64,000 nucleotides of DNA from an uncultured Candidatus Saccharibacteria bacterium (GTDB lineage: Bacteria > Patescibacteriota > Saccharimonadia > Saccharimonadales > JAGPDM01), in contig CAZUNB010000001.1 in the NCBI GenBank assembly GCA_964622235.1, positions 9,360 through 73,359 of the forward strand, written 5' to 3'. Below, in pieces: positions 16,896 to 38,700 of the stretch (its first letter is position 1; the number at the start of each line of letters is the position of its first letter). Both the position numbers and the translations under genes were made by a program. The notes beneath the pieces are model-generated. The model did not search any database. It worked only from the letters and a program-made list of their open reading frames with translations, and had not been told where the DNA came from.

Positions 16896-16926
16896 ACGCT
16901 AGTTTTTTGAATGCTATACTCCATAT

Positions 16927-17316: not shown

Positions 17317-17332
17317 AATCGCTTAAGAGTTC

Positions 17333-18430: not shown

Positions 18431-18468
18431 TTCAGTACTAGTATACCAGATTAAACTAGTATTCTAAG

Positions 18469-18708: not shown

Positions 18709-18816
18709 CTGCTTCTCCTTACTTAACTAGTTCTGGTACTATATCGCAGAAGAATACAAAAATGAAAAATATATAAGAAAACGTCAAATACATATAGTTT
18801 ATGTTATATTTATAAC

Positions 18817-19476: not shown

Positions 19477-19511
19477 AGTTAACCAATATAATCGTTAGGC
19501 TATAAAGTGAT

Positions 19512-19901
19512 ATGGCAACAATTTTTGAAAAAATAATTGCACGTGAAATCCTAGCACAGATTGTTTACGAAGACGAGAGAACTATCGCATTCCTCGACAT
19601 AGCTCCGGTGAGCCGCGGCCACACACTGGTCGTACCAAAGACAGTTGTTGATCAGATTGATGATCTATCAGAAAATGATTATCAGAACCTCATGCTCGTC
19701 AGCCGAAGAATTGCTCGTAATTTGCGAGTAAAACTAGCTCCATTGCGAATTGGCCGTTTAGTGTACGGCCTCGACGTTCCACACGTCCATATTCATTTGA
19801 TTCCACTTTATACTGGAAAAGAGATGCAACTTGAGAACAAGGGAGAGCCTGTCGAGAGCACCGAACTTTTAGCAACGCTTCAAGAGGTAAAAATCTCGTA
19901 G
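19512..19901 (+). CDS. HIT-family (histidine triad) nucleotide hydrolase
   Basis: N-terminal IFxKII motif and the histidine triad HVHIHLIP. Confidence 0.8.
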   Translation: MATIFEKIIAREILAQIVYEDERTIAFLDIAPVSRGHTLVVPKTVVDQIDDLSENDYQNLMLVSRRIARNLRVKLAPLRIGRLVYGLDVPHVHIHLIPLYTGKEMQLENKGEPVESTELLATLQEVKIS

Positions 19902-22713: not shown

Positions 22714-22938
22714 GATTATTAGACCTCAGACTTGTCAAACTGACATAATTATATTAAAAGAAATTATAAATCAAAAAACTTCACGTGAATTGATTTTTCC
22801 GTGATTCTTGCATCCCACAACTGTTATTTATTTGAACAAAACTTGAACAAATAGTTTCTAACATTTTTGTTTTCATGTGCAATTATACCCGACGATTCAC
22901 TAAATTACCAGAAACGTGTTCGGAGCCTACTCAGGTGT

Positions 22939-24021
22939 TTATAATGCCCAATTTGGTTTAATAATTATCGAATCCTCTGAGGTGGGTGAAATATTTAACG
23001 ATAAAGCAGCGGCGGCGATCATAGCCGCGTTGTCAGTGCAATAATGAGGATCGATGAACTGTACGCTGGTGGAAATATTTCGCATCATTTCTTCTCTCAG
23101 TAGCTTATTTGCAGCAACACCACCACCGATAATTACGCTCTTTGGTTTAAATTCCTTTTCTGCTTTTTGCATTTTTCTGATCAATATTTTAATGGCTGTC
23201 ATTTGAAAGCTAGCAGCCATATCGTTAATTTGTTGTTGGTTAAGTCTTGTCGCTAACTGGTAGCTTGGAAATGTATAATCTTCCCCGATGGCTTTTTGTA
23301 GTAGTCGCAGAACGGCAGTTTTTAATCCAGAAAAGCTAAAGTCATATGGAGTATCAACTTTTGGAATTGGCAACTTGAAAGTGTCAGAATTACCGTGCTC
23401 TGCGGCTTTTGTTATTGAAGGACCGCCCGGATAAGCAAGCCCTAGCATCTTGGCAACTTTATCAAAAGCCTCACCAACAGCATCATCTCGGGTTTGTCCC
23501 AGTAGCTTAAAATTATCTACCGACTGAAACAACATAATATTGCTATGGCCACCACTAACAACGAGTGCCAAACAAGGAAACTCTGGTGGTTTTCCTTCCT
23601 TCAGCCACTGCGCTGAGGCGTGACCGATAATATGATGAACCGGAATGATAGGCTTATCGATTACCGTGGCCAGCGTTCTGGCGCTCAGTGTACCCATCAA
23701 CAAGCTACCAGACAAACCAGGTCCTTTTGTAACCGCAATTGCGTCGATTTTCCGCCAAACAGGGTGCTGAGAGTCAAGCAACTCGAGAAGGGATTTATTT
23801 GTTGGTTCATCTGGAAAGGCTTTGTGTAGACTCTCGGCAATTGTGGGTAAAATTGCTTCAAGGTGGGAACGGGAAGCTATCTCTGGAACAACACCACCAT
23901 ACTGTTTCTGAATATCTATCTGACTCGAAACAGCCGAGCTAAGCACTGTTGGCAGCGAATCATCACGTACAACCGCTGCAGCAGTATCGTCACAACTAGT
24001 CTCTATACCTAAAATCGTCAT
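22939..24021 (-). CDS. tsaD: tRNA N6-adenosine threonylcarbamoyltransferase TsaD (Kae1/Gcp family); start set at MTILGIETSCDD
   Basis: MTILGIETSCDDTAAAVV N-terminus, the HxxGH metal-binding motif (HHIIGHA), and the GGVAAN segment. The 23 codons upstream in the ORF track look like a non-coding extension. Confidence 0.85.
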   Translation of the reverse strand: MTILGIETSCDDTAAAVVRDDSLPTVLSSAVSSQIDIQKQYGGVVPEIASRSHLEAILPTIAESLHKAFPDEPTNKSLLELLDSQHPVWRKIDAIAVTKGPGLSGSLLMGTLSARTLATVIDKPIIPVHHIIGHASAQWLKEGKPPEFPCLALVVSGGHSNIMLFQSVDNFKLLGQTRDDAVGEAFDKVAKMLGLAYPGGPSITKAAEHGNSDTFKLPIPKVDTPYDFSFSGLKTAVLRLLQKAIGEDYTFPSYQLATRLNQQQINDMAASFQMTAIKILIRKMQKAEKEFKPKSVIIGGGVAANKLLREEMMRNISTSVQFIDPHYCTDNAAMIAAAALSLNISPTSEDSIIIKPNWAL

Positions 24022-24063
24022 TGATGATAGTATAACCGATGGAAGATTAAACAAGGAAAAACT

Positions 24064-24381
24064 ATGGATCCATCTCAACAACAGCCACAACTTTCAGCAG
24101 AGCAAGTGCAGAGCCAACAACTAGGATTGATTATAAGTGAGTTGGCACAGCTCAAACAAATATCTACAGCAATCTGGGGCAAGGTCGATAGTGAGATTGA
24201 TCAGATCCGGGCTGACCTTTCTCGGGTGAGTAGCGAAGTCAACCAACTTGGAACTGGCATTCGAAATGTCGAAGTTAAACTCCGTGAAACTGATGGACAA
24301 ATCGACCGCATCGAACGTTTCGAGACAATGCTTCGAAATATCGAGAAGCAAATCAACAATGTCTACTCTAAAATCCGTTAG
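24064..24381 (+). CDS. Hypothetical small coiled-coil protein
   Basis: 105 aa with a Gln-rich start and heptad-like hydrophobic spacing throughout. Confidence 0.35.
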   Translation: MDPSQQQPQLSAEQVQSQQLGLIISELAQLKQISTAIWGKVDSEIDQIRADLSRVSSEVNQLGTGIRNVEVKLRETDGQIDRIERFETMLRNIEKQINNVYSKIR

Positions 24382-25394
24382 CGCCGAAGCCTCTTATAGA
24401 AATTAAAGACCGAATACGATGGTCTGTCAAAAACCATATCTAGCATAGGATTATGCACTTTAATCTCACCGCCGAAGCCTTGCTTATACTTGGTAACTTT
24501 TTTAATAGTTGGGTAATCATCATCTGATGAACTAGCGCCGCCAATACTGTAATATTTAAGGTCCCTGCGCATGGCCTCTCTCATTGACTCCCACTGTACA
24601 AAGCTTGGCACTCGGAGCTTACGACCTTCGTCGTCTGTTCCTGAGAGGAGGGAGTGGGCGATTGGGCCGTAACTAACAATTAACTTACTACTGATTACCT
24701 TATCCTCTTTGCGAGCTTCGACAAGATAGGCATGCTTGAGCTTATCTGAAATATCGAACAAATTCTGATAATAATCCTTTTTAAAAATCGCAAAACCTTG
24801 TTTCTGTGCGGTAAATTCGAGTAACCGAAAAAAATCATCCAAGCCGGATTTTATATCTGGCTGGATGCTAACTTCAACGCCTTTTTTTGCGCCGTAACGA
24901 ACTGAATAGCGGGTGTTTTTATCAAAACGTGCAAACACCTCATCTTCATTGCTCAAAGGAACGATCATCTCACCACGCGGTCGAAAAGAAGCTTCGGATG
25001 TTACAAACTTTGGTACATCGCGCCAACCACCATCACTCATCATTGAGAAATCGCCATCAACGTCTAGGCGTGAAAAAACAACTTTTCTTTGACTGTTCTT
25101 TGCGTAAAATTCTTTCAGTTTTTTACTGATAAAATTTTGTTGCTGTCTATTTGGAGCTTGTTTAAAAACTTGACAGAAAGGAATATACAGTTAGCTTCGT
25201 CTAGATGGCAGAGGGTGAGATATTGCTTGAAAACAACTCAAGACCTCATCATCTTCACGGAAAACAAACCGATGAACTTCAGATTTATACGACTGCCACT
25301 GCCCATAAAACCAGGCCTGGGTAAACATAGTGCGATCATAAATTTCAAGAGGTCGATAGTCCTGTTCGTTTGTAATTTCATCGAGATAATACAT
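24378..25394 (-). pseudogene. FemAB-family (peptidoglycan interpeptide-bridge aminoacyltransferase) paralogue interrupted by one in-frame TAA
   Basis: The 67-aa ORF at 25191-25394 and the 221-aa ORF at 24378-25043 are in the same frame. They are separated only by a TAA at 25191-25193 (...PSRRS*LYIPFCQVFK...). The combined length is about 339 codons. Fem-like motifs include QAWFYGQW and SYGPIAHSLLSGTDDEGRKLRVPSFVQWESMREAMRRDLKYYSIGG. Confidence 0.55.
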
Positions 25395-25437
25395 CGAATG
25401 AATACTAGCAAAAAAACCATGCTACTGATAGTCAGCA

Positions 25438-26484
25438 GTGATTTATGGCATACTAAAGCGCATGAGCTCGACACAGACAATTGATCAAATCGGTAAGGAA
25501 GATTGGAATCAGTTTGTCGCATCTACGGATAACGGCTCAATTCACCAGACAACTATGTGGGCAGACTTTCAAAAAACTTTAAAAAACCGCGGCGAAGTTA
25601 TTGGGGTTGGCTTATTAAAAAATGACAAAGTAGTCGCAACAGCATTGGCGGTTCGGATGCAAACGCGGCTGCCTAACCTATATTGGTACTACTGTGCGCG
25701 TGGGCCAGTCTATACCAGTACAGATGAAGGTAGTGAGATTTTAGCAGCACTTGAAAAAACTGTAGCTCAAAAGAGAGGAGCGTTCCTGCGCTATGACCCC
25801 TATGTTCTGAGCGATGACGAGTTTGATTACAAGACCAGTAAAACCCAGATTGCTGACAAACAAAACTTTCACCCACTCGACAGCTTACTGCTCGATATTT
25901 CACCACCAACAAACGAGATCTTTGCAAGCATGAAGAAAAGAACCAGGTACAACATTCGCATGTCAGAAAAACACGGAGTCACGGTAAAAAGCTACGATGG
26001 TGAAAGCGCTCAGCCAAAACAAATTGATAGTTTCTATAAGCTACTAACCAGAACTGCTGATCGTGATAATTTCACTTCACACAGTAAAAGTTATTATGCT
26101 AATTTTATGAGCTCACTTGGCGCTAATGCGCAGCTATTTATCGCATCACTTGATGATCAGCCAATTGCAGCTAGCATCTTAACGACTTTCGGTGATACTG
26201 CAATCTACTATTTTGCAGCTTCGTCTGATAAGCCTGAACATCGTAAGATTATGCCGAATTATTTACTTCAAGCCGAAATGATACGACACGCAAAAATGAA
26301 GAATTGCACAGACTATGACCTATTTGGCATTGCGCCGGAGAATGAGCCAAATCATAAATATGCTGGCATTGGTCACTTTAAAATGATGTTTGGTGGTCGG
26401 CGAGTCAAGTATCAAGCAGGCAAAGATATCATACTAAGCAAAGCTAAAACTAAGCTGTACTGGGCTGCAAAGCGTATACTGTAA
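25438..26484 (+). CDS. FemAB-family aminoacyltransferase (FemX/MurM-like, peptidoglycan bridge formation)
   Basis: 348 aa. QTTMWADFQK N-terminal motif, AIYYFAASSDKPEHRKIMPNYLLQAEMIRHAKMKNCTDYDLFGI core (compare YYGGSDDEYRNLMPNYLLHWEAI...YDFGG). Transcribed divergently from the interrupted paralogue. Confidence 0.75.
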   Translation: MIYGILKRMSSTQTIDQIGKEDWNQFVASTDNGSIHQTTMWADFQKTLKNRGEVIGVGLLKNDKVVATALAVRMQTRLPNLYWYYCARGPVYTSTDEGSEILAALEKTVAQKRGAFLRYDPYVLSDDEFDYKTSKTQIADKQNFHPLDSLLLDISPPTNEIFASMKKRTRYNIRMSEKHGVTVKSYDGESAQPKQIDSFYKLLTRTADRDNFTSHSKSYYANFMSSLGANAQLFIASLDDQPIAASILTTFGDTAIYYFAASSDKPEHRKIMPNYLLQAEMIRHAKMKNCTDYDLFGIAPENEPNHKYAGIGHFKMMFGGRRVKYQAGKDIILSKAKTKLYWAAKRIL

Positions 26485-26486
26485 CT

Positions 26487-27794
26487 ATGGAAAGTCTGAA
26501 GAAAAACTTAAAAAAAGTACTACCAAGATCGCTCATCCAGCTCCTGGTCAATCCTTTTCACTTGCTTGAGGCAATAGTTGCAACGATTGTCTATGGTTAT
26601 CCAGCACGAAATCTTGAATTTATAGGTATTACCGGAACTAAAGGAAAAACAACCACTGCAAATATGCTGTCAGAGATTCTAGTTAAAGCCGGCCATAAAG
26701 TGGGGCTGAATTCAACGGCAGTTTTGCGTGTCGATGATGAGGTTTGGGAGAATGACCTCGGCTTAACTACTGCTAACGCCTTTAAACTACAAAAACTTCT
26801 CGCCAGAATGAAAAGAAGCCATTGCGATATTGTAGTTATGGAGGTCAGTAGCCATGCCCTAATTCAACATCGAGTGCTTGGGCTACGGTTTGACACTGTA
26901 GTTTGGACGAATCTTCAGCGGGACCACCTCGACTACCACCACACGATGGAGAAATACGCCAAAGCTAAGGCAAAGCTATTCTCAAAAAACCCGCGACTTG
27001 CTGTAATGAATGCTGATGATTCCTGGGTTGACTACTTTTCTTCAAAACGAGCTGACTCTCAATTATTCTTCGGGTTAGAGCCCGGTAAAGATTCGACAAT
27101 CGTTAAAGCCAAGCTCGGTGCCAGTGGCAGTGCTGCCACCCTAAGAATCGCCGAGCATGAACTAGATATAAGACTTAATTTGCCAGGCAAATTTAATGTT
27201 ATCAATGCTCTGGCAGCCGCCACAACCGCTTATGGAATGGGAGTCAGCCTAGAACACATCAAAGCGGGTATAGAGGCCGTCAAAGCTGTCCCCGGACGCA
27301 TGGAGGTCATCGATGAAGGGCAGGACGCAACGGTGATCGTAGATTTCGCCCACACTGAAGAAAGTCTACGAAATGTGTTAGAAACTATTCGCACAACGCT
27401 GCAAGGACGTTTAATCACTGTACTAGGAGGAGATGGGCAGCGTGATGCCGGCAAAAGAACACCGCTTGGCGAAGTTACAGCGGAGCTTAGTGAGATGGTG
27501 GTCGTTTGCGACCAGGAGCCGTATGATGATGATCCAGATGAGATCCGTGAGCACATATTAGCCGGCGTCAAAAAAGCCCAGACAAAGAAACCCGGCGTTA
27601 TCTACAAGACAATTTTAAATCGTCGTGAAGCGATCCGAGAAGCGCTCAAGTATGGCAAAAAAGGCGACGTTATCGTTGTGACTGGTCTCGGCTGTCAGCC
27701 ATATAGGCAAATGGCTGGCGGTAAGATTGATTGGGACGAACGAAAAGTCGTGCGTGAAGAGCTCCAGAAACTGCAAAAGACGAGAGATAAATAA
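26487..27794 (+). CDS. murE: Mur ligase family protein, MurE-like (UDP-MurNAc-L-Ala-D-Glu:diamino acid ligase) with short N-terminal domain
   Basis: GITGTKGKTTT P-loop at residue about 48, MEVSSHAL, the DHLDYH motif and KAKLF. Only about 35 aa precede the P-loop where MurE normally has about 100. Starts 3 nt after the Fem gene. Confidence 0.7.
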   Translation: MESLKKNLKKVLPRSLIQLLVNPFHLLEAIVATIVYGYPARNLEFIGITGTKGKTTTANMLSEILVKAGHKVGLNSTAVLRVDDEVWENDLGLTTANAFKLQKLLARMKRSHCDIVVMEVSSHALIQHRVLGLRFDTVVWTNLQRDHLDYHHTMEKYAKAKAKLFSKNPRLAVMNADDSWVDYFSSKRADSQLFFGLEPGKDSTIVKAKLGASGSAATLRIAEHELDIRLNLPGKFNVINALAAATTAYGMGVSLEHIKAGIEAVKAVPGRMEVIDEGQDATVIVDFAHTEESLRNVLETIRTTLQGRLITVLGGDGQRDAGKRTPLGEVTAELSEMVVVCDQEPYDDDPDEIREHILAGVKKAQTKKPGVIYKTILNRREAIREALKYGKKGDVIVVTGLGCQPYRQMAGGKIDWDERKVVREELQKLQKTRDK

Positions 27795-27827
27795 CAGCTC
27801 AGCCGATGAGAGGCCGGTGGCGAGAGT

Positions 27828-29129
27828 TTAACCTCTCTTATTTGTTCGGCTGCCACCACGAGCCCTAGGGACACCAACCCCTCCTCTGTTGTTGCCATTT
27901 CTATAATTATTCGGCTGTTTTATCCGCTGCGTTACACTAGGATCGGCTGGCAACTCGCGGCCGTGAAATGGATACGAATGACGTTGTCTTGATTGTATTA
28001 CCCCTCTGTATCGCTTTTCAGAAGGCAAGTAAGCTACAAGATCAATCGACGGAGTTATCGGGGCGGGCAACTCTACTGTTATGGTTTTAGTGGTAACACC
28101 AGTCTCTTGTTTTACATCTGGCACCTCAAATGTTACTTCAGCCCTCTGGCCCCTTTTGTCGCCACCAATCACTCTATCTAGAACCCCAGATTGAACATCA
28201 CCATTATTATAGGATTCTACCAGTCGCTGTATAGTAGTTTTTTGATTCTCTGCCTCTCTAGAAACTGCCATGTAGTCTGGTTGAGATAAGACGTCACCTT
28301 CTGGTGCAGTAATCGTAAATTTTTCAGGAAGATCTTTTAAGACACCTTCGCCGTGTAGTTCAGCGATATCTGTCAGCAACACGGCAGCTAACGCGTCTGC
28401 TCTTTCCATTCCAAGATCCTGGTTGGACTCACTTTCTTTTAGTAGTCCTGCGTCTGGGTTTAACTCATCTTCGGCAGAAACAAGTCCTGTTATTGTGATC
28501 TCTTTTATCGAACCGCCTTCTTTGATAGTTTCGACAATTCTTGATAACAATTCAGCATAACCCTCAGGGTTAACAAACCGACTTTCGGCTGAATCACTAA
28601 ATTCTTCAGCATACTCACCAACTGGTAGCTGCGTCTCAACTCGTTCTTCTGTGACGATCCGCTCAACAGGTTGGGATATCGGTACATTACGTTCGACTGT
28701 TGTGATGGTGTTACCAACACCTGGCAAGCGAGCGAAGACGGGGTTTAAGGCCAACCCAGCCGCGACTGCTCCCATTCGTCTCCTTATCTTGTCGGTAACT
28801 CTTACGCGAGGTAAATTCTCGAGTTTACCATCTTCATCTCGATCTGGTCCGACAATACCTTTGTGCTCTCTTTCTGTTCTTGCTTGCTCGACAGAAAAGT
28901 CTGGCAACCTGCCACTATAGGCATCTCGCTGAAAAGTCACACTACCTTCTCCCGCGCTCAAAACCGAATATCCTGCTTTAGCTAGAAGTTCAATAGGCGC
29001 ACCGAAATCTACTGCAAGCTTTTCAACCAAGTGATGTTCACCGTCGCCACCGTTCAACTGATCGTGTGTCATAGCTGGGTCAACTTTAAAGTGTGCCGTA
29101 TCTTCGTGGCTAAGATTTTCTGTTGACAT
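27828..29129 (-). CDS. Hypothetical acidic protein with C-terminal Arg/Gly-rich tail
   Basis: 433 aa, Glu/Asp-rich, with no TM helix or signal peptide. The C-terminus is NGNNRGGVGVPRARGGSRTNKRG. Convergent with the murE-like gene. Confidence 0.45.
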   Translation of the reverse strand: MSTENLSHEDTAHFKVDPAMTHDQLNGGDGEHHLVEKLAVDFGAPIELLAKAGYSVLSAGEGSVTFQRDAYSGRLPDFSVEQARTEREHKGIVGPDRDEDGKLENLPRVRVTDKIRRRMGAVAAGLALNPVFARLPGVGNTITTVERNVPISQPVERIVTEERVETQLPVGEYAEEFSDSAESRFVNPEGYAELLSRIVETIKEGGSIKEITITGLVSAEDELNPDAGLLKESESNQDLGMERADALAAVLLTDIAELHGEGVLKDLPEKFTITAPEGDVLSQPDYMAVSREAENQKTTIQRLVESYNNGDVQSGVLDRVIGGDKRGQRAEVTFEVPDVKQETGVTTKTITVELPAPITPSIDLVAYLPSEKRYRGVIQSRQRHSYPFHGRELPADPSVTQRIKQPNNYRNGNNRGGVGVPRARGGSRTNKRG

Positions 29130-29287
29130 TTTTTGATTCCTTTTTGTTGTGAATTTTTGTTTATTTTATGTAATATATATGTTTAACATTAACACTAAGT
29201 TTATTATTTGTCAATAATATTCATCAAGAATTTGCCATGATTGTTTATAGCCTGTTGATCTAAACATATAAAATAGGGGGTTTCGTA

Positions 29288-29623
29288 ATGAACACTAGAT
29301 CATTAGCAATCAATTTACTAAACTTTTTCACTTCACTTGTAGAGGGGTTTTTGGCGCTTCGTTTTGCAACTAAACTAATGGGTGCAAACCCTAACAATGG
29401 CTTTATAGCATGGCTCTACGAGATGAGCGGCGTTCTACTCGATCCATTTCAAGGTATTTTCCCAGCTACAGTCTTTGAAAATCGATTTGTGAATGAATTC
29501 TCAACTCTATTCGCTATGTTGATTTATGCCATTATTGCAGTTTTAATAGTTACACCAATTGATACTGTGACCCCATCTAAAAAAGTCTTCTCGCAAATAA
29601 TCGTTGGAGATAAACGAATGTAG
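29288..29623 (+). CDS. Hypothetical small membrane protein (2 TM; YggT-like topology)
   Basis: 111 aa with hydrophobic helices at about 10-30 and about 75-97. The YggT call is tentative. Confidence 0.3.
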   Translation: MNTRSLAINLLNFFTSLVEGFLALRFATKLMGANPNNGFIAWLYEMSGVLLDPFQGIFPATVFENRFVNEFSTLFAMLIYAIIAVLIVTPIDTVTPSKKVFSQIIVGDKRM

Positions 29624-29783
29624 CGAATCATTCTTTCTCGTCTATTTTATTCTAAAATGAAGCTTTAATGATACGACATTAGTAAAGATTATATGAATAG
29701 AAATCAAATTATATATTTACATTTGCATTTACATTATATATTTATATTACATTTTAGTATATAATATGATATAATATAGTATT

Positions 29784-32207
29784 ATGACTACCAGAGAACT
29801 AGGGCATGATACAGACCCACAGCTTGAAAATATTGGAGACAAATTAGTTTTTGACCTTGAAAAAGATCTTGAATCTAAACGTGGCTTCGTGGCTCACAAA
29901 GACCGAATGCTCGGAATCCTAACTAATTTTCCAAGAATAGATACAGAGGGTATGCGACTGGCGATTGCACTACATGATGTTGTTTCTCATTCCATAATCA
30001 ATGCAGCAAACGAAGATATAGCCGATGCTACAAACGTAGGGCTCAATAGTATATATGCCCAACTGGAGGAACCCGATTCAAAGCATTTATTTACGTACTC
30101 ACTTGGGATTGGTACTTCGGTTGAACGATGGGAACAAGTTGCAGAGCGGTGGAGGGAACCTACTAAAAATGAGGTCCAGAGTTTTATTACCTCACTCGAA
30201 AGTATTGATTCAACTGCCGAAATAGTAGGCATAACTACTAAACATATTAAAGATGTTGCAGAAGAGCACAATGTTGAAATGGAGGTAGTTGCAGAGCAGT
30301 TACTGGCGGCCCTAACAAAGGATGAAACAGTTAGCGTTGACCCATCATTGCTTACTAAATTACGCCCTCGAGTAATTTCTCTGGATGACTTCCTGGAGGC
30401 GTCCGAAAGTCTCGACGTTGAAGGTTTGATTATAAAAACCATCGAGACTGTCGACAACCTACAGAACCCGAAACCAGGAGCTAAAGCTTCTGCTTGGCGT
30501 GATTCTATTGAGGTCCTTTCTTTCTATGGACCAGCCTTAGAGCTGTTTGGTTTTGAAGATTTAGCAGCAACTGCGAGAGGCGTTGCTTTAGAATATGTTT
30601 ACTCAGCAGATGAATATGATGATGTCCGAGATAAGGCTCGGGCAATCAATGAAGATGCTAAAAAACGCATAGACTCCATCGGTGAAAAAGCCCGCATAGC
30701 AATTGCTACAGTTGTGAAGGATACTGACTTTCTCGAAGAGGATGACATAAAGGATATAAGCATTAAGGGCAGGCCAAAATCTGTCGGTGGAATCATGGAA
30801 AAAATGATTACTAAATACAAATCTTCTCTTGATATTTCTGACGCCATAGGCCTACGCTTGACCATCAGCGATACGTTGATGCAGAGAATCATAAATGACG
30901 TTACAAGAAACCTGGGTCCTGATGTTGATCAAGAGTTTATTGACCATAAAGTAAAGCTTAGGGTTGAATCAATTTCTGAAAAACTACACACTGCAATTGG
31001 TTCTTCTACGGATGTATCGTATCTTAACACTAAAAGTGAATCTATAGATCTTACAGTTATTCAGCCTCGAAGATCTGGATATAAAGCTGTTCACCTCAAC
31101 TATGAATTGAATTGGAGCGATGATGAAGAAGGAACTACACCTTTTGAAGTTCAGGTCACCACCGATAAATATCATAAGAACAATACTTACGGTCAGCCAT
31201 CTCACTATATCTACAAAATGTTCGGAGGGAAAGAACCTACCCGAGACCAGCTAGCAGCACTAGACAAACTCGGCAAAAAATCAGAATACCTCATTGAAAG
31301 CCCCGACCGACCAGTCCTTGCCCCACAAGCTTGGTTCGATATCCTTCACTATATGCCGGAGCTTCCAACAGAATTTCATAGGACCCACCATTATGTTTCT
31401 CTCAATGATGGGGATACCGAGCTAGCAATACCACACAATCTAACACCAGACTTATTAGAAGGTGTTGAATTCCAAGGATCTGCAATTCTGCCGGCCTACC
31501 AAGCAGAGCTATCTAACTTCCTCCATCTGCTAAAACATCTTGTACCAGATATCAATATAGAAACCTTTGGAGACGTAGGTGAGGTCGCAGAATACGCAGC
31601 TATGAAGCACAGTGGACAAACTCGCAGGAGCTCGGGTAATAAGTATTTTTCAGGGCATATATTACCCACCACCCAGTTTCTTTTATTAAATTTACACCAA
31701 GATGGTTGGCTACACGACAAATCAAAAGATGGCAGTACAAGCAAACATGATGACGCAATCATTCTACTGAAGGCATCGTTGTTACATGACACGGTTGAAG
31801 ATACACCAACAAGTATTGAAGAAATCCGACGCATTCACGGTGATAAAGTTGCCGATCTGGTTAAAATACTCTCCAAGAACCCAAAGCCAGAATCAGGAGA
31901 GACAAAGGCCGAGAGAGACTTACATGAGAGTGAGTATTTAGAACAAGTAATGAAAAGCCCTGATGCATTACGGATTAAGTTTGCCGATAGGATACAGAAC
32001 ACATTGACTGATATCGTTGACGGACTAGAAGGTAGACTAAGCAGTGGAGTCCTAGAAAAGGCAATCAAATCATGGCAAGAGACAATCAAATTCTTAATTA
32101 AACCAATGATTGTTCAGGGCAAAATCAGCGATAATCAACTAAAAACAGCACTTGCAACAGATGGATTGATGAAGCTACTTCAACAAAAAAATGAGCAAGC
32201 AGTATAG
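29784..32207 (+). CDS. RelA/SpoT-homologue (RSH) with non-canonical domain order: N-terminal HD-like remnant, (p)ppGpp synthetase (NTase) domain, then complete C-terminal HD hydrolase domain; no TGS/ACT
   Basis: Synthetase motifs at res about 325-470: KGRPKSVGGIMEKM (compare GRxKxxxSIxxKM), DISDAIGLRLTI (DxxDxxGxRxI), SGYKAVHLNY (GYxSxH), FEVQVTTDKYHK...GQPSHYIYK (ExQIRTxxMH...AxHWxYK). HD domain at res about 590-740: AMKHSGQTRRSSGNKYFSGHILPT, LLHDTVEDTPTSIEEIRRIHGDKVADLV, ALRIKFADRIQNTLT. The N-terminus carries a weaker H...(26 aa)...HD pair (VAHKDR...IALHDVVS). Confidence 0.6.
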   Translation: MTTRELGHDTDPQLENIGDKLVFDLEKDLESKRGFVAHKDRMLGILTNFPRIDTEGMRLAIALHDVVSHSIINAANEDIADATNVGLNSIYAQLEEPDSKHLFTYSLGIGTSVERWEQVAERWREPTKNEVQSFITSLESIDSTAEIVGITTKHIKDVAEEHNVEMEVVAEQLLAALTKDETVSVDPSLLTKLRPRVISLDDFLEASESLDVEGLIIKTIETVDNLQNPKPGAKASAWRDSIEVLSFYGPALELFGFEDLAATARGVALEYVYSADEYDDVRDKARAINEDAKKRIDSIGEKARIAIATVVKDTDFLEEDDIKDISIKGRPKSVGGIMEKMITKYKSSLDISDAIGLRLTISDTLMQRIINDVTRNLGPDVDQEFIDHKVKLRVESISEKLHTAIGSSTDVSYLNTKSESIDLTVIQPRRSGYKAVHLNYELNWSDDEEGTTPFEVQVTTDKYHKNNTYGQPSHYIYKMFGGKEPTRDQLAALDKLGKKSEYLIESPDRPVLAPQAWFDILHYMPELPTEFHRTHHYVSLNDGDTELAIPHNLTPDLLEGVEFQGSAILPAYQAELSNFLHLLKHLVPDINIETFGDVGEVAEYAAMKHSGQTRRSSGNKYFSGHILPTTQFLLLNLHQDGWLHDKSKDGSTSKHDDAIILLKASLLHDTVEDTPTSIEEIRRIHGDKVADLVKILSKNPKPESGETKAERDLHESEYLEQVMKSPDALRIKFADRIQNTLTDIVDGLEGRLSSGVLEKAIKSWQETIKFLIKPMIVQGKISDNQLKTALATDGLMKLLQQKNEQAV

Positions 32208-32462
32208 TACAAGTCTGTTAACTTTGCTAAAACTACACGTGAATAATTTATTGTAAAAAGTATTTCTTTTGTCGTTTTTTTATACTCAAAAATTATTTTA
32301 TGATGAATTCAGTTTATGAATTCGAGCTAGAGTGGCGATCTTCTCAATATATAAAAGATTGCTTAGCTCTTTGATTTCGATCATTATTTCATTAACTATT
32401 CTGAAAAAGAGAAATCGAATATTGTGGCGCACACAATTCGTACCATGATGCAGTAGTCTATG

Positions 32463-32487
32463 CTTATCTTATCTTATCTTATCTTAT
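32463..32487. repeat. Pentanucleotide microsatellite (CTTAT)x5
   Basis: Perfect tandem cttat x5 in the 300-nt gap between the convergent RSH and histidine-phosphatase genes. Confidence 0.9.
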
Positions 32488-32511
32488 CTCATAAATCAGT
32501 CAGCGCCAAAG

Positions 32512-33189
32512 CTACCAGTCAGATTGAGGCACAGGCAACCATAAACTATCATTTGGATTGTTGTGCCATGGAGTTATCGTTCTTCGATCGACCGGCGAGT
32601 TAGCATCGCGATAATCATCAGAGAATCTATACATCAACAGAGAAGCATTGTTAAAATGCAGCTCTCCACTGGCTACTTGATGATTGAAGTCGTCGTCCGG
32701 AATTCTTTCAACCCTTGCTGCAAAGGCAAGCATTGTGTCGTGATGAGTAATAATCTTTATACTTTGTCGAAGGGGAAGTATCCCTGATAGAAACTCAGCA
32801 ACTCTACCATCCCTCATCTCGCGTATAGTCTCACCACCCTGAGGCCTCCAATCAAGTGCATCTTGTTTGCGTTTAATTTTAGAGGCGGCATCATATTCTA
32901 TCCCTTCCAAATCTCCGTTATCTCTTTCGACGAGTCGAGAGTCGATTTGCCAATTACTTTGCTGTGAACCGCTATGTTCTGCCGACTGAATAGTTCGACG
33001 CATAGAAGATACACACACAAGCCCATAGCTAAATCCCTGATCTCGCTCCCATTCAGATGTAGCTTCTACCTGCACGATACCGTCAGGGTGTAATTTGGCA
33101 TCTACAATATCATCATCTTCTACTCGCTCGCCATCGAAAAATGCGTTTTGGTTGCTCCTACCATGCCGCATTATTGTTAAGGTGTACAT
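32512..33189 (-). CDS. Histidine phosphatase superfamily protein (phosphoglycerate-mutase-like)
   Basis: N-terminal LTIMRHGRS (RHG catalytic motif), a second conserved His in ITHHDTM, and a 225-aa length. Confidence 0.7.
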   Translation of the reverse strand: MYTLTIMRHGRSNQNAFFDGERVEDDDIVDAKLHPDGIVQVEATSEWERDQGFSYGLVCVSSMRRTIQSAEHSGSQQSNWQIDSRLVERDNGDLEGIEYDAASKIKRKQDALDWRPQGGETIREMRDGRVAEFLSGILPLRQSIKIITHHDTMLAFAARVERIPDDDFNHQVASGELHFNNASLLMYRFSDDYRDANSPVDRRTITPWHNNPNDSLWLPVPQSDW

Positions 33190-33210
33190 GATAATATATT
33201 ATCTTAAAAA

Positions 33211-34290
33211 CTATTTTTCTTTAGGTTTTTCTAGCGTAAGAATTGACGAGTTGCCAAAAACAGCTGCAGGATTTGACTCATAGCCTAACAGCCCGCGCTG
33301 AACAATTTCAGCAACGTCGTCACTGATTCTTAAATCCGCAATACATACTAGCATTTGATCTATTGCATCGTTCCGTTGCGTAATTCCTGTTCCAGGCGAA
33401 TAAAGAGCGTCCTCGTATGCAGCAGCAAATTCTTTCATGTCAACAGCCATCAATGATCTCCATAGCGCATCTAGAACATCAGTTTGCGCAGGAAGCGCTC
33501 TGTCTATTTCACGATCATGTATCCCAATGGTTTTTTTAGCTAGCTTGTGCACCTTCGAGGCTTCATTTGTTTCACCATCCTGGCCGATTTGACTACGGGG
33601 AGTTATAAACTGACCATCTAACCATAGAACATAACTTAAGCCTGAACCAATTGCTAATGGCTTTACACCATCATGATCCATGGTAAATCCACTTGCTTCG
33701 GCTATTTGATACCACTCATCTGGCAAGAGCTTGTTGACATGACTTGACCGTCGAATCGCATCAACGTGTGGTAGGTCTAATGCATCAAGTTTATACAAAG
33801 TGGGCACAACAACTGTAAATTTTCCGCCAGGTTTAAGGGCCTGGAAAGCACCGTCAAACACTCTCCCTGGATCAGGAATGTGCTCGATAACGTCAGCGCA
33901 AAGAAAGCGATCAATGGCGTCCTCTCGAAAAGGCATTACAGCACCATCTGCAACAACTCCTCTTGCTTCAGCATACGTATTTAGACTTGGGTTAGCTCGG
34001 TGCGCTATTTCATTTGAGAAATAAGCGGTTGATAAATCTAGTCCTACATATTCGGCACTATGTTCAGCAAATTCATGTCGTAATGAGCCCGGTTCATCCA
34101 CAACTGCATTTACGTTCCCCCCAATATCTACAACCATCCCATTTCCATCTTCCGACATAAGCTCCGCTAGTCTACGGTTTTTGTAAGCCGTGTAGCCACC
34201 TTGTTGAGTCGTACTGAAAAATCGTTCTGCGTAGTCTTCATCGTAAACTGCAGCCACATCTGGTCCACCAGAAATACCTAATCCACTCAT
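33211..34290 (-). CDS. Class I SAM-dependent methyltransferase with C-terminal extension
   Basis: Motif I MVVDIGGN, acidic motif II ending D-V, post-II ADVIEHIPDP, and LKPGGKFTVVVP (type-11 methyltransferase pattern). About 150 extra C-terminal residues of unknown function. Confidence 0.6.
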   Translation of the reverse strand: MSGLGISGGPDVAAVYDEDYAERFFSTTQQGGYTAYKNRRLAELMSEDGNGMVVDIGGNVNAVVDEPGSLRHEFAEHSAEYVGLDLSTAYFSNEIAHRANPSLNTYAEARGVVADGAVMPFREDAIDRFLCADVIEHIPDPGRVFDGAFQALKPGGKFTVVVPTLYKLDALDLPHVDAIRRSSHVNKLLPDEWYQIAEASGFTMDHDGVKPLAIGSGLSYVLWLDGQFITPRSQIGQDGETNEASKVHKLAKKTIGIHDREIDRALPAQTDVLDALWRSLMAVDMKEFAAAYEDALYSPGTGITQRNDAIDQMLVCIADLRISDDVAEIVQRGLLGYESNPAAVFGNSSILTLEKPKEK

Positions 34291-34432
34291 AGACTCAGCG
34301 CTTTTTTATCTTTAACAAATATAACTAAGCAATTCATTAGTATACAATAACATACCTTTGTAATAATAGCTATACTAAGTATTGAAGTAATTAAGTGTAA
34401 TAATTCCTATAATTTCTTTATACTTTAAATGT

Positions 34433-35704
34433 ATGAATATTCTAATCATTGGTTCCGGCGGACGTGAACATGCCCTGGGGTGGAAGCTTTCTCAGTCGCC
34501 AGAAGTGAGTAAAGTTTTTTTTGCTCCTGGGAATGGTGGCACAAGCTTAGTCGGGGAGAATGTCGATATCGGTGTGTTGGAAATTGATAGGCTTCGCGAA
34601 TTCGCAATCGAAAATGGAATTGGATTTACAGTTGTTGGCCAAGAAGCTTCGTTAGAAGTTGGGATTGTCGATAGCTTCACTCGAGCTGGACTGGCTATTT
34701 TCGGCCCAACTAAATCGGCCGCTCAACTAGAAACCTCAAAAGTATTCATCGACCAGCTACTGGAAAAACATGACATTCCACGGCCGGAAAGCGTAGCGGT
34801 CGACAATATCGAGGATGGATTACGCTATATTAAAAATCGTGAACCAAGTAGCTACGTCATTAAAGCCGACGGGTTGGCCACCGGCAAAGGCGTAATTTTA
34901 CCAGACAGTGAAGAGGAAGCCTTGCGCGAATTAACGCGGATGATGAGTGGTGAGTCATTTGGAAAAGCGGGTGAGTCTGTCGTATTCCAGGAAAAGCTAG
35001 TTGGTCAAGAAGTTAGTGCTTTTGCCCTAAGTGATGGTGCCGACATCATTATGCTGCCATTCTTCCAGGACCACAAACAAGCTTACGACGGCGACACCGG
35101 ACCAAACACCGGTGGAATGGGCGCCTACACACCAGTTCCATTTTTAACAGATGAAATCAAACAGAAAATCCAAACCGAAATTATGCAAAAAACCGTCAAC
35201 GGAATGAAGACTGATGGCCACGAGTATCGCGGAGTTGTCTATGCTGGACTGTTCGTGAACGGGGAAGACGTCAAAGTAATTGAGTTCAATGCTCGTTTTG
35301 GTGACCCTGAGTGTCAACCGATGATGATGTCACTCGAGGAAGATCTTCTACCACTCCTACAGCAAGCTGCAGCTGGCAAATTCACTCAAACTGAGATTAA
35401 AACCAGTAGCGAAGCGATTGCGACAGTTTGCCTCGCTAGCGGCGGCTATCCATATGAGTATGAAAAAGGTAAAGAGATTTTTGGTCTTGATGGCGTCAGC
35501 AACACTGATATTGTCATCTTTCATGCTGGAACGAAGTTTGAAAATGATAAGTTTTATACCAATGGTGGGCGAGTGCTCAACGTAACTGCTCGAGCCGACT
35601 CAATGAAAGCCGCACTCAACAAAGCCTATTCGAAAATCGGTGAAAACGGTATCCATTTTGACCAAATGCATTTCCGATCTGACATCGGCTTCCGCGTTTT
35701 ATAA
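34433..35704 (+). CDS. purD: Phosphoribosylamine--glycine ligase (GAR synthetase)
   Basis: MNILIIGSGGREHALGWKL N-terminus, ATP-grasp core (IKADGLATGKGV...EFNARFGDPECQ) and a 423-aa length. Confidence 0.9.
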   Translation: MNILIIGSGGREHALGWKLSQSPEVSKVFFAPGNGGTSLVGENVDIGVLEIDRLREFAIENGIGFTVVGQEASLEVGIVDSFTRAGLAIFGPTKSAAQLETSKVFIDQLLEKHDIPRPESVAVDNIEDGLRYIKNREPSSYVIKADGLATGKGVILPDSEEEALRELTRMMSGESFGKAGESVVFQEKLVGQEVSAFALSDGADIIMLPFFQDHKQAYDGDTGPNTGGMGAYTPVPFLTDEIKQKIQTEIMQKTVNGMKTDGHEYRGVVYAGLFVNGEDVKVIEFNARFGDPECQPMMMSLEEDLLPLLQQAAAGKFTQTEIKTSSEAIATVCLASGGYPYEYEKGKEIFGLDGVSNTDIVIFHAGTKFENDKFYTNGGRVLNVTARADSMKAALNKAYSKIGENGIHFDQMHFRSDIGFRVL

Positions 35705-35772: not shown

Positions 35773-38700
35773 ATGCAAACAATCGAACAAAATCAACCTG
35801 AGACTATGCAACACCCTGACCACAGTGGTATCACTGCTGAAATCATCGCAGGAATCGGAGCCCTTGCCAGTCTTGATTTAGCAGTCAATAAACCTGGGTG
35901 GATTCGAAACATATCACCGCAGGATGTTATTGCTGGAGACTCTTTATCAGAATCTCTCGGTTTGCCCGGCGAGAGAGAGCCGCATACAGACGACTGGCTA
36001 ACGGACGAGGACCGAACTGCAACTCAGGCAGCAATTAAGCGCATAACTAAGGAACAAAAAGAACACCAGAAAAAGCGGTTAGCCGAAGCCGAGCAAGAAG
36101 AAAACCCGGAAGCAAGAAGGGCACTAGTTCTAGACGCGTGGACACACAACCCAGACACAGCTAAAAGAGTGGTGGGTTTTTTAAACGAAAGAGCAAAGCG
36201 AACACCTTCAAGCCGCCCATACTCAAGTCCAGACAATCCGGTAATGTCTGACGATGAAATTATTGAAGCAAGCGAATCTTCAAAAGGATTTCAAAGAGCG
36301 GTTGAATGGTGTACGACTCTTCGACCTCGTTTAATTCTAGAACGCGGGACGAAAGAAATCCTTGAGAGTATGGTTGATAAAAATGCTCTCACCCAGTCTG
36401 TTGTTAGTATGGCTGATGCCGATCCTGATTCTTTTGTATATCACCTCGAAGATATCCGAGACATAATTGATGACCCAGAGGCATTCGAAGGTGCCGTCCA
36501 AAAGGCGGAGAGAAACCTACCAGAACAAACGCTAGAACGACTTACTCAAATGGTTATTGACGAAAAAGCAGCAGGCAAGCCATCAAGCCAAATGGAGGAT
36601 CTTGCAAGATCAATGCTTGTACGCATGCGTGATAAACCATTAAATGCAGAGACGCTAGCAAACATTATTCAAGCCAAAATATGGACAAAAGAGGAGGTAA
36701 CTAAGCAAGTTTCTGGCGTTGCATCAACAGCACACGGTATTAGCTACTATAACGACTTCGGCTACGACAGACTATCCAAAGTAATTTCACCAGAGATGGC
36801 TGAAACAGCTAAACAGGCAGCCATAACCGCGATTGAAGACAACCCCAAAATGCTTTGCAGAGTGGCAGAAATAGATAGCAACCAGTTTCATAACGATGAA
36901 CTGGTTACTAATGGCGGGGTCATGAGCCCTGAACTACTCAACAAAACTGCAGAAAAACTACTGACCGATCCAACGCAATCATTTGGATTTTTCACTGGAG
37001 AATATCTCTCAGAACTAACCCCCGAAATAGGAAGCAGGGTAATTGATCGAATTATCGAGCTCAGCACCGACTACTATCCGTCAGAAGAAATCATGGAAAA
37101 AGCAAGCGATGAACAGCTCGGTTCAATTCTTGGTAACTTTACCCAGCATAAGCCCGGATTTTTACTTTCAGTGGTGGAAAATAATGAACGAGCGCTGGCG
37201 ATAGTCTGTGCAATGCCGCCGGACAATAAGCTAGAAATAATGGGTAGATTAAGCACGTATAACTTAATTAAATCGTCTGAAACATTGGAAACAATTGGGG
37301 TCCCAGCTGAAATAGTCGCTCAACAAATCAAATACTCATTTGACCGTAGCCCAGACATGAGTAGCCTGGTCTCAATTACAGATAAAGGCTTGCTCCCTCC
37401 TGACGACATTAGTGGGATGCGCGATCGACTAGTCGAAGCAGTAGCATCCGGCGAGACACGACCAGAGCAGTTTGTTGCAAACCGCGACCTCGATATTGAG
37501 GTTTTTAGCGATGAAGAATTAACGGCAGCAATAGCTGCAATAGGTGAAGCTAATCCTGCGGCTGGTTTTGCTTGCGCACTTAAGAACCGGGGATATTATT
37601 CAAAAACTGAGATTGAAAAGATTATCAGTACCGCAATATCTGATCATCTCGATGATGATTTATTGTTAAGTGAAGTCTTTGCGAATGTCTACAGCGGTAA
37701 AGAACCTATAGTCAGCATTGTTGGTGGTTCTCGAGTTGCAGATTTCGTCCAAGGACTATCAAGCAAGCAGCTTGACGGCATAGCCTACCGCCAAAACAAG
37801 ATCGCTGCGACGATAGGGGTAGAGGGAACGAAAGCCTTAGCTCATAAAATTGTACAAGAAAATCCAGCTAGCTTACTACTTGAAGAGTTCCGTGATTTCT
37901 ATGCGTCATTTTATCCTGATTTTGACCCAGATAGTTTTAAGGTAGAAGATTTACCAGAAAACACCGAAGTAAAAGATCTAGGTGGAAAATATCTAGTCGA
38001 TAAATGGAAGAAATTACAAAGTTCAACTTCCGAAATTAGGAGGTCAGAGATAGCAACTGAACTATCCTCATTGTATCAAAAAATTAATGACATAAAACTT
38101 AATGGCAATGCAGAAGGCGCCCAAAAAATAGTTGACTCGCTTAATGGCACCAAGGTAAGCCGGAGAGAAGTAATTGGATCTCTTTGGCTGTTTACTGAGC
38201 TGGGTGAAAATATGCCAGAATCAGTTGAAGCTTACAGTGATTTAGAAGAAATGCTAGTTGTCTCACTTGCAGATAAACTCGGTATGGAGGAGCCCAATAA
38301 AGAGCAGGTCAAACTATTAGTTGAAAGTGGTTTCCGCGTGTATAGCTTTGGTGTTTACGCCAACGAACACATGAACCCAGCACATAAAGAGGTGCTAGGT
38401 GCAATCCTAAAGTCTAGCTTGGATGAGAATTTTACAGAATGGAAATACGGTGGGGATACTGAAGACGATCTTGAGCATCTTAAGTCTAGCGGTCTCGTAC
38501 CCGAGAGTTTAACGTTAGACCAGTACCTAGCTTGGCAACATGACGAAACCACCGAAACGAGCATCGGGCTAGAACTTGGAGCATCAACAGCGCTTGCAGC
38601 CATCTCAGACACCATGACCGGCTACCAACCAGAACTCTTAATGACAGCTGCAGAAACAGACTATCAAGAGATAAAAGGTGAACTGCAAAGTATGGGGAAA

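Follow-up and report, generated by a model that had tools for sequence, protein, structure and literature searches.

An RSH protein of Candidatus Saccharibacteria with a degenerate HD domain ahead of its alarmone synthetase domain and a complete HD domain behind it

A 64,000-nucleotide stretch of a contig from an uncultured Candidatus Saccharibacteria bacterium (CAZUNB010000001.1, positions 9,360 to 73,359; hereafter the window) carries a gene for an 807-residue RelA/SpoT homologue (RSH). The protein is composed of an HD-like domain that lacks the catalytic Glu-Asp pair (pseudo-HD), an alarmone synthetase domain (SYN), a 110-residue spacer and a complete HD domain (C-HD), and the canonical domain order is not simply reversed. 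The layout is kept in 39 aligned full-length homologues, and is therefore neither a chance arrangement nor an artefact of gene calling. Judging from its motifs, the gene probably encodes a self-contained bifunctional enzyme, which would synthesize and hydrolyze an alarmone, most likely (p)ppGpp, in a homeostatic manner and without sensing the ribosome.

Long RSH proteins are the textbook link of ribosome status to the stringent response, and the sequence of their domains (HD, SYN, TGS ... ACT) is regarded as near-universal in bacteria. The reduced genomes of Saccharibacteria would hold an alternative solution, in which hydrolysis is assigned to a second HD domain, C-terminal in this family and N-terminal in relatives. 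A comparative genomics study regards most Saccharibacteria as capable of (p)ppGpp synthesis (PMC6031116). We found no specific account in the literature of an RSH protein with SYN upstream of HD or with two HD domains, nor an analysis of RSH proteins in Saccharibacteria or the candidate phyla radiation (CPR). The RSH censuses (PMC7229694, PMC3153485) describe long RSH proteins, small alarmone synthetases (SAS) as well as small alarmone hydrolases (SAH), and such an architecture is absent from the portions of their main text available to us; family members could be listed, unclassified, in the supplementary tables of the 2020 census. One annotation string in IMG already lists both domains for a family member, so that the combination has come up in automated annotation, and no analysis of it was found.

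Results

An RSH protein with a complete HD domain behind the synthetase

The RSH gene is one complete open reading frame (ORF; Table 1), in agreement with an earlier note made from the sequence alone, and all motifs quoted in that note are present. A Pfam-A search assigns RelA_SpoT (PF04607) to residues 329–478 (E 8.5e-11, 42.6 bits against a gathering cutoff of 27), HD_4 (PF13328) to residues 662–739 (E 8.1e-7, 29.3 bits against a cutoff of 27.2) and HD (PF01966) to residues 655–739 (E 7.1e-5, 23.5 bits against a cutoff of 22). The two catalytic domains proposed in the note are thus real, and the intact HD domain does lie C-terminal to SYN, as the note had it. No other Pfam-A family, TGS, ACT and RelA_AH_RIS included, matches the 807-residue protein even at E ≤ 1, which bears out the claim that TGS and ACT are missing, and the NCBIfam spoT_relA models give partial, sub-threshold matches only.

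The AlphaFold2 (AF2) model of the 807-residue protein is confident, with a mean predicted local distance difference test score (pLDDT) of 84.6 and a predicted template modelling score (pTM) of 0.88. The best Foldseek matches of the model in the PDB are the catalytic halves of Rel, RelA and SpoT, which align over 380–495 columns, whereas structures of synthetase-only SAS proteins align over ~240 columns. Structures of Mesh1 and bacterial SAH proteins also match the model, with TM scores of 0.68–0.75 relative to the target and sequence identities of 20–24%.

The protein carries the features that define the RSH superfamily, namely a synthetase domain with RxKxxxSxxxK, DxxG, GYxSxH and ExQ motifs and, in its C-terminal domain, an HD domain with the H...HDxxED...D..N signature. 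Residues 1–480 follow the long-RSH order of N-terminal HD or pseudo-HD, linker helices and synthetase, and correspond to canonical Rel 31–382; the C-terminal regulatory half of long RSH proteins (TGS, helical/AH, RIS/ZFD and ACT/RRM) is lacking. The protein is not an SAS, which has a single synthetase domain of ~200–300 residues without an HD-derived N-terminus, nor is it an SAH, which is a stand-alone HD protein of ~180–200 residues; its C-terminal domain is SAH-like but fused.

A long-RSH catalytic half with a degenerate HD domain

We set an alignment profile of the 39 full-length homologues (A2) against one built from 12 canonical long RSH proteins (A4), the first of which, P0099, carries HD_4, RelA_SpoT, TGS, AH_RIS and ACT. 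In the hhalign comparison, A2 columns 198–454 are collinear with canonical Rel 146–382 at 99.6% probability; the match runs through the linker helices and the whole synthetase, and the family segment ETVDNLQNP falls on canonical ADRLHNMRT. The linker region matches canonical Rel 146–250, likewise at 99.6%, and with the N-terminal 320 residues alone the match reaches back to canonical residue 31 at 92–97% probability. Searches of PDB sequences place residues ~210–405 on the HD end, linker and synthetase start of Rel enzymes, with residues 210–361 aligned by phmmer to residues 135–280 of Thermus thermophilus Rel.

At the metal site, H38 aligns to H67 of P0099, H64-D65 to H91-D92, and D224/N228 to D158/N162. 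The weak N-terminal pair that the note had suspected of being a degenerate HD domain (VAHKDR, containing H38, and ALHDVV, containing H64-D65) therefore lies on canonical ligand positions and is one. Across the family, the N-terminal HD pattern reads H...LHDxVDH, with H64 present in 32 of the 39 members and D224 in 27. The catalytic Glu-Asp of HDxxED is replaced, the segment being HDVVSH (S68-H69) in the 807-residue protein and HDxVDH in the family consensus. Alignment of the HD metal ligands, a point raised in the note, thus has a divided outcome: the set is complete in C-HD, and the N-terminal domain keeps the H, HD and D/N positions but not the Glu-Asp. An insertion of ~100–120 residues (approximately residues 85–205) separates the HD motif from the D..N helix of the N-terminal domain. 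An HD fold without catalytic residues is the mark of a RelA-type pseudo-hydrolase, and the N-terminal domain has this character; it is probably catalytically inactive.

The most conserved non-catalytic segment of the family comprises the linker together with residues 206–235 (WRDxIE...PALELFGF...LRGxALEY), and residues 206–318 have the highest mean pairwise identity of all regions (31.5%).

In SYN, the motifs are GRPKSVGGIMEKM at residues 329–341, D353..G356-L-R358, GYKAVH at 432–437 and EVQVTT at 455–460, and the catalytic set consists of R330, K332, K340, D353, G356, Y433, H437, E455 and Q457. Specifically, K332, D353 and E455 are present in 39 of 39 members, K340 in 38, R330 and Q457 in 37, Y433 in 36, and H437 in 32, and the family motif SGYxAxH aligns with canonical NGYQSxH. 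A SYN-only profile searched against the PDB scores the long RSH enzymes RelSeq (42 bits), Escherichia coli RelA (38.9 bits) and Mycobacterium tuberculosis Rel (35.8 bits) above the small synthetases RelQ and FaRel2 (31.8 bits each), RelP (25 bits) and CapRel-type entries (23 bits). Because of the collinear hhalign match, the metal-ligand positions and the preference of the SYN profile for long RSH enzymes, residues 1–480 appear to be derived from a long RSH protein.

A hydrolase-type HD domain in place of the regulatory half

The spacer, which stands where TGS would be expected, has no Pfam match in any of 21 members, and its hhalign probability against canonical Rel including TGS, AH and ACT is 0.1%. 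Modelled alone with AF2, it reaches a pLDDT of 82.6, and its fold has no Foldseek match in the PDB (best E 0.26). We considered the spacer as a degenerate TGS domain and rejected this assignment, since there is neither similarity to the canonical C-terminal profile, nor a Pfam match, nor a matching PDB fold.

C-HD carries the motifs HSGQTRRSSGNKYFSGH at residues 609–625, LLHDTVEDT at 666–674 and KFADRIQN at 732–739, which together make up a complete (p)ppGpp-hydrolase-type site: R614, H625, H668-D669, E672-D673, D735-R736 and N739. R614, H625, H668 and E672 are present in all 39 members, D669 in 38, D735 in 37, and R736 and N739 in 35 each. R614 falls on the Arg that is conserved in canonical Q.R.SGEPY..H. 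By hhalign, residues 590–807 match the canonical HD domain over its entire length, with a probability of 99.8% (E 5e-27; 99.4–99.8% across comparisons). A C-HD profile searched against the PDB gives 52.8 bits for SpoT, 49.7 bits for Drosophila Mesh1 and 45 bits for Rel of M. tuberculosis, scores that are too close to tell a duplicated long-RSH HD domain from a captured SAH. C-HD also matches phrog_990, a phage metal-dependent phosphohydrolase family in PHROG, with an E value of 1.4e-19.

The C-terminal tail is the least conserved region, with a mean pairwise identity of 19%. A forced end-to-end alignment places it on the helices that follow the canonical HD domain, up to residue 250. Neither the spacer nor the tail has profile similarity to the canonical C-terminal regulatory half.

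A divergent family of Saccharibacteria

Relatives were counted as representatives, i.e. clusters at 50% identity. Word-indexed homologue searches returned 3–4 proteins only, whether the single protein or the 39-member alignment was the query. An exhaustive profile search returned 59 representatives below 1e-30 and 552 below 1e-10, and architectures were counted over the best 151 of these 552, sorted with domain-specific hidden Markov models. Among the matches listed, at least 40 representatives have the full layout of pseudo-HD, SYN, spacer and HD, in addition to about 9 fragments, and at least about 58 have the HD-like and SYN core only (480–620 residues). In at least about 5 (P0069, P0084, P0111, P0114 and P0118), an intact HD domain (HDW[LFY]ED, DRxxN) stands ahead of the degenerate HD and SYN; Pfam misses most domains of these five proteins. 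About 30 of the best 151 are canonical long RSH proteins. Stand-alone proteins composed of spacer and HD, considered as products of gene fission, were rejected; they are probable fragments, lying on contigs of 1–2.5 kb with missing or internal starts.

The 39 full-length members are only 19–28% identical to the 807-residue protein. Mean pairwise identity is 29–32% in the catalytic domains and linker and 19–23% in the HD-like N-terminus, spacer and tail. Despite an overall identity of ~25%, both active sites appear, from this pattern of conservation, to be under purifying selection. Pfam finds RelA_SpoT in 32 of the 39 members, HD_4 in 14 and HD in 14, and no other domains, with TGS, ACT and AH_RIS absent from all 39. 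C-HD is found in 14 of 39 although its catalytic residues are conserved family-wide, and routine annotation therefore labels most members as synthetase-only.

All labelled family members are Candidatus Saccharibacteria or Saccharimonadales, and housekeeping proteins encoded in the window cluster at ≥90% identity with proteins assigned to Candidatus Saccharibacteria. No relatives of the family were found on viral contigs, a scan of a genome collection returned a single, already known contig, and a metagenome scan gave three short, distant loci. A neighbour-joining tree, which is distance-based and spans very divergent sequences, is informative for coarse grouping only. The same core carries an intact HD domain at its C-terminus in some members and at its N-terminus in others, and a hydrolase in cis thus seems to be wanted. 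This recurrent fusion suggests that the synthetase needs a counterbalance, as would be the case for a homeostatic enzyme and for a self-neutralized toxin alike.

Diverged alleles between murE and purD

In the window, the RSH gene lies in a strain-specific cassette between murE and purD (Table 1). In a blastn comparison with the sister contig L008, identity is 93.0% up to position 27778 and 97.5% from position 34431, with no match between, and a comparison with L013 gives identical break points (27778/34431). The GC content of the cassette is 0.41, versus 0.435 in the flanks. No repeats, integrase, transposase or other mobility genes were found at the cassette boundaries. An independent assembly (L021) has the cassette genes next to purD and the right junction at 99.96% identity.

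The slot is a hot spot of replacement, in which at least three alleles with unrelated gene contents, encoding RSH proteins of 807, 747 and 558 residues, are found between flanks that are ~93–97% identical. The window allele comprises the 807-residue RSH and four other genes. The allele of L013 and L014 (GCA_017991755) encodes a 747-residue RSH with the full architecture as the sole gene in the slot (L013, 2582–4929). The allele of L008, L009 and L011 (slot at 11293–14977 in L008) encodes a 558-residue RSH that is collinear with residues 28–527 and lacks the C-terminal HD, together with an unrelated 448-residue hypothetical protein. A relationship between the 433- and 448-residue hypothetical proteins of the different alleles was considered and dismissed, as they have no similarity.

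The closest relative of the 807-residue protein is P0002, which is 36% identical and comes from a distant genome (L020) whose PurD is 59% identical. In L020 the RSH gene directly precedes purD, and the linkage of RSH to purD is therefore old. The window allele is thus nearer to the gene of a distant lineage than to the alleles of its sister strains, which speaks for replacement of the allele by recombination, or for allelic lineages of long standing, over divergence in place. The RSH frame of L020 (L020:1-2343) is split: a 102-residue upstream ORF matches residues 52–153 of the 807-residue protein, and the called 661-residue gene starts at the equivalent of residue ~171, the split being due to a frameshift or stop and reflecting a pseudogene or a sequencing error.

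A promoter-like site lies 8 nt upstream of the RSH ATG within an AT-rich intergenic region of 160 nt; such sites are no more numerous in the region than in shuffled sequence, and no obvious Shine-Dalgarno sequence was seen upstream of the ATG. An imperfect 25-nt tandem duplication (ATTATATATTTACATTTGCATTTAC, 76% identity) at 29708–29757, immediately upstream of the RSH start in the AT-rich region, adjoins the promoter-like hexamers. Five units of a CTTAT pentanucleotide repeat lie at 32463–32487, in the intergenic stretch between the stop codons of the convergent RSH and His_Phos_1 genes.

The murE–purD context is shared by the window, L008, L013 and L020. A second context, seen in one subclade of Saccharibacteria (L001, L003 and L005), consists of an ATP synthase operon, a cobA-like gene, the RSH gene, a Zeta_toxin/AAA_33 P-loop kinase gene, glycosyltransferase genes and smpB; a third is represented by L006 and L007. 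The first two contexts are chromosomal, of housekeeping type and stable within lineages. In the second context, a CobA/CobO/BtuR-like gene (PF02572) lies upstream of the RSH gene and the Zeta_toxin/AAA_33 kinase gene (~170 residues) downstream (L001:6013-10799, L003:7407-10842, L005:7409-10783), an arrangement that the window lacks. In L005 there is a 4-nt overlap of the kinase start with the RSH stop, an indication of co-translation and perhaps of a functional connection, e.g. nucleotide phosphorylation.

Elsewhere in the window, positions 16477–19843, which hold an AIRS-domain protein and small ORFs, are only 79% identical to L008, versus 93% for the adjacent 20074–27778. A 1267-residue ORF without a Pfam domain lies directly downstream of purD (35773–39576) and has ~97% DNA identity in sister genomes. 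Internal DNA repeats of ~70–210 nt with 71–79% identity lie at 9873–10433, inside the ORF at 8831–11389 for an 852-residue protein of beta-propeller/NHL type, and were seen as several off-diagonal blastn matches to L013.

Table 1. Coordinates in the window of the RSH gene, its domains and the surrounding locus
Feature	Position	Strand	Remarks
RSH gene, complete ORF	29784..32207	+	ATG start, 807 aa (ORF list)
Layout of the 807-aa protein: pseudo-HD, linker helices, SYN, spacer, HD, C-terminal helices	29784..32207	+	
N-terminal HD-like (putative pseudo-hydrolase) domain, aa 1-235	29784..30488	+	hhalign, family pattern
Linker helices, aa 236-318, counterpart of the Rel helical bundle between HD and SYN	30489..30737	+	hhalign
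Alarmone synthetase domain SYN (RelA_SpoT), aa 319-482	30738..31229	+	Pfam, conservation
Spacer, aa 483-592, in place of TGS	31230..31559	+	Two helices, then a small alpha/beta unit
C-terminal HD hydrolase domain (predicted), aa 593-750	31560..32033	+	Pfam, hhalign, conservation
C-terminal helical tail, aa 751-807, and stop codon	32034..32207	+	AF2 helices 754-777, 783-806
Promoter-like site, ATTACA, 18 nt, TATAAT, with TG	29746..29775	+	Consensus scan; pattern match only
Strain-specific 6.65-kb cassette between murE and purD	27779..34430	.	blastn breaks against sister contigs
Left anchor, Mur ligase (MurE-like)	26487..27794	+	Pfam Mur_ligase_M, Mur_ligase_C
Cassette: 433-aa hypothetical protein	27828-29129	-	No family match
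Cassette: 111-aa ORF	29288-29623	+	No family match
Cassette: His_Phos_1 phosphatase	32512-33189	-	Pfam
Cassette: S-adenosylmethionine (SAM) methyltransferase	33211-34290	-	Pfam
Right anchor, PurD (glycinamide ribonucleotide synthetase)	34433..35704	+	Pfam GARS_N, GARS_A, GARS_C

Discussion

From these features we infer what the protein catalyzes, on which substrates it acts and how it is regulated. The protein belongs to a lineage found in Candidatus Saccharibacteria, and would descend from the N-terminal, catalytic half of a Rel-type long RSH enzyme. Its original N-terminal HD domain would have lost the catalytic Glu-Asp and become a RelA-like pseudo-hydrolase, which may now serve as an allosteric or structural partner of SYN through the conserved linker helices. 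In E. coli RelA, the synthetase is switched by the pseudo-hydrolase (PMC8012599). The C-terminal half that senses ribosomes and tRNA (TGS, AH, RIS/ZFD and ACT) would have been lost, and a second complete HD domain would have been attached via the spacer of ~110 residues. SYN would transfer pyrophosphate from ATP to the 3′-OH of GDP or GTP, while C-HD would remove it with a metal-dependent site of SpoT/Mesh1 type. The balance between synthesis and hydrolysis would be set by intramolecular contacts and ligands, and not by stalled ribosomes.

Several observations weigh against this homeostatic enzyme. Its activities and substrates are read from motifs, and the SYN motifs are not all canonical: the Arg of DxxGxR (R358, nt 30855–30857), which is invariant in the canonical alignment, is Arg in only 19 of the 39 members, and the Arg of EIQIRT is replaced by Val, Leu, Met or Thr in most members (T459, nt 31158–31160, in the 807-residue protein). 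With neither canonical arginine conserved across the family, the acceptor or the kinetics may differ. Furthermore, the locus behaves unlike a typical housekeeping gene. The three RSH alleles in the murE–purD slot are mutually 26–27% identical and one of them has no C-terminal HD, while the flanking proteins of the sister strains are 88–98.6% identical (MurE 88–93%, PurD 89–98.6% and ValRS 95–98%). In the L001, L003 and L005 group, the RSH protein is the fastest-evolving or nearly so, at 36–44% identity versus 55–82% for most neighbours. In addition, no other RSH-type ORF is present within the 64-kb window, and a canonical Rel, SAS or SAH could be encoded elsewhere.

The behaviour of the locus would be accommodated by a conflict system, in which a toxic synthetase is fused to a cis-acting hydrolase "antitoxin" and serves in phage defence or in conflict between epibiont and host or between strains, a reading that we consider unlikely. 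Upon a trigger, hydrolase and synthetase would become uncoupled, and an alarmone burst or the modification of another target would arrest growth. Allele replacement with sharp, recombination-type boundaries speaks for such a system, as does an RSH gene that outpaces all or most of its neighbours in other contexts. The least conserved regions, namely the non-catalytic HD-like N-terminus, spacer and tail, could be sensor surfaces, and the C-terminal domain matches a phage phosphohydrolase family. According to the accessible part of the census, SAH proteins neutralize toxic SAS proteins (toxSAS), both in the form of the antitoxin ATfaRel and as phage-encoded SAHs (PMC7229694). Tentatively, the murE–purD slot might be a recombination hot spot that keeps deeply diverged, interchangeable alleles of a self-regulating alarmone module, composed of pseudo-HD and SYN with a hydrolase in cis or without one, each acting as a single-chain toxin-antitoxin or sensor. 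The variable HD-like insertion, spacer and tail might then detect phage or host cues and free the synthetase from the hydrolase, a refinement that we likewise consider unlikely. If it is true, ultra-small epibiotic bacteria would have a new class of conflict system built on RSH proteins. Defence systems of the toxSAS kind are recognized by a conserved bicistronic or fused toxin-antitoxin architecture together with a match to a defence model, and the family does not have this combination: no bicistronic partner is conserved across contexts, and PADLOC gives no match for the RSH alleles or the cassette genes except a weak one for the methyltransferase (mad2, E 4e-4), which was set aside as generic SAM-methyltransferase similarity. 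The family is not on viral contigs, the cassette has no integrase, transposase or boundary repeats, and the SYN profile is nearer to long-RSH synthetases than to FaRel2 or CapRel. Finally, an RSH gene of this family is always in the slot and its linkage to purD extends to 59% PurD identity, which has the look of a core function that is kept while its alleles are exchanged, and not of a sporadic island gene.

The departures from the canonical SYN motifs bear on a different chemistry, with a product or substrate other than (p)ppGpp, e.g. (p)ppApp, or an acceptor such as the tRNA 3′ end. Tas1 and FaRel2/CapRel are RSH-fold enzymes with alternative activities, and FaRel2 and CapRel-type entries are among the PDB matches of SYN. 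Along with the two lost or relaxed arginines, the region corresponding to the canonical acceptor-side motif FKDYI is not conserved in the family. We nevertheless judge this chemistry improbable, as the G-loop stacking Tyr (Y433) and H437 are kept in most members, true (p)ppGpp synthetases give the best matches in sequence, and C-HD has the full Rel/SpoT/Mesh1 signature including R614. A plain fusion of SAS and SAH genes, or a circular permutation of Rel, would account for an intact HD domain C-terminal to SYN, for profile scores of C-HD that are as good for Mesh1/SAH as for long-RSH HD domains, and for relatives in which the intact HD stands at one end of the core or at the other, as modular fusion of an SAH-like unit would have it. 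Such an origin was favoured in the earlier note, which took the domain order to be reversed and the protein to be an SAS/SAH fusion or a rearranged Rel. The ~320 residues ahead of SYN, however, are collinear with the long-RSH HD domain and linker, which SAS proteins lack, and any fusion partner would therefore have been a RelA-like pseudo-HD and SYN core rather than an SAS. The fusion account thus fails for the synthetase half, where the SYN profile places RelSeq, RelA and M. tuberculosis Rel ahead of RelQ, FaRel2 and CapRel. The reversed order does not hold either, as residues ~1–480 keep the canonical long-RSH order and the intact HD was added in place of the C-terminal regulatory half; a rearrangement in the sense of a permutation is likewise contradicted, with the HD-like domain still at its canonical position and nothing permuted. 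We regard a plain fusion or permutation as very improbable. Chimeric assembly, or two neighbouring genes wrongly called as one, could be suspected because the 807-residue protein is a singleton in clustering at 90% identity and an identical product is not in the contig index. Such an artefact is scarcely credible: the gene is one uninterrupted ORF, the collinear architecture recurs in about 40 independent representatives and in the intact loci L001, L003, L005, L006 and L013, the independent assembly reproduces the cassette genes and the purD junction, and the flanks are contiguous with those of sister genomes.

If the activities of the homeostatic synthetase/hydrolase are confirmed, the protein would be a minimal, sensor-free alarmone switch, and the family would be a natural experiment on the antagonism between synthetase and hydrolase where the active HD domain does not share the linker with SYN. 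For a regulator presumed to be of housekeeping type, the swapping of alleles is unusual, and it raises the question of diversifying selection or conflict in epibiotic CPR bacteria.

Comparison with known systems

Like E. coli RelA, the 807-residue protein has an N-terminal HD fold without catalytic residues, linker helices and an apparently active SYN, and the two are collinear by hhalign and Foldseek. Unlike RelA, it has no TGS, AH, RIS or ACT and no recognizable sensor of the ribosome or of deacylated tRNA, its pseudo-HD keeps the H/HD/D metal-ligand positions, and a second complete HD domain stands at its C-terminus. With the bifunctional Rel and SpoT enzymes (RelSeq, T. thermophilus Rel and Acinetobacter baumannii SpoT) it shares the combination of SYN and a full-signature HD domain in one polypeptide, and these enzymes match both domains best, in sequence as well as in fold. 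The intact HD domain of the 807-residue protein, however, lies ~120 residues downstream of SYN and not directly upstream, the antagonism of HD and SYN across a common linker, which has been studied well, would concern the pseudo-HD instead of the active HD, and the regulatory half is absent.

Residues ~593–750 and the two following helices share size, fold and motifs with SAH proteins (Mesh1, Pseudomonas aeruginosa SAH and the phage PaSpo type), but C-HD is fused behind a spacer to SYN and has a stretch between the first His and the HD motif that is ~19 residues longer. CapRel is a fused toxin-antitoxin in one polypeptide. A toxSAS such as FaRel with its SAH antitoxin ATfaRel, as described in the accessible part of the census (PMC7229694), resembles the present system in pairing a synthetase with a neutralizing partner, and the locus here is hypervariable. 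In contrast to toxSAS and CapRel, the 807-residue protein combines a long-RSH-type SYN with a pseudo-HD, and has neither a bicistronic partner nor a match in the defence database. The plant RSH and CRSH proteins also consist of a long-RSH catalytic half whose C-terminal region is lost or replaced, for example by an EF-hand in Rsh4/CRSH according to the part of the earlier census available to us (PMC3153485), and their set of domains is flexible; here, by contrast, the replacement module is a second HD domain that is predicted to be catalytic, not a sensor, and the lineage is bacterial (CPR).

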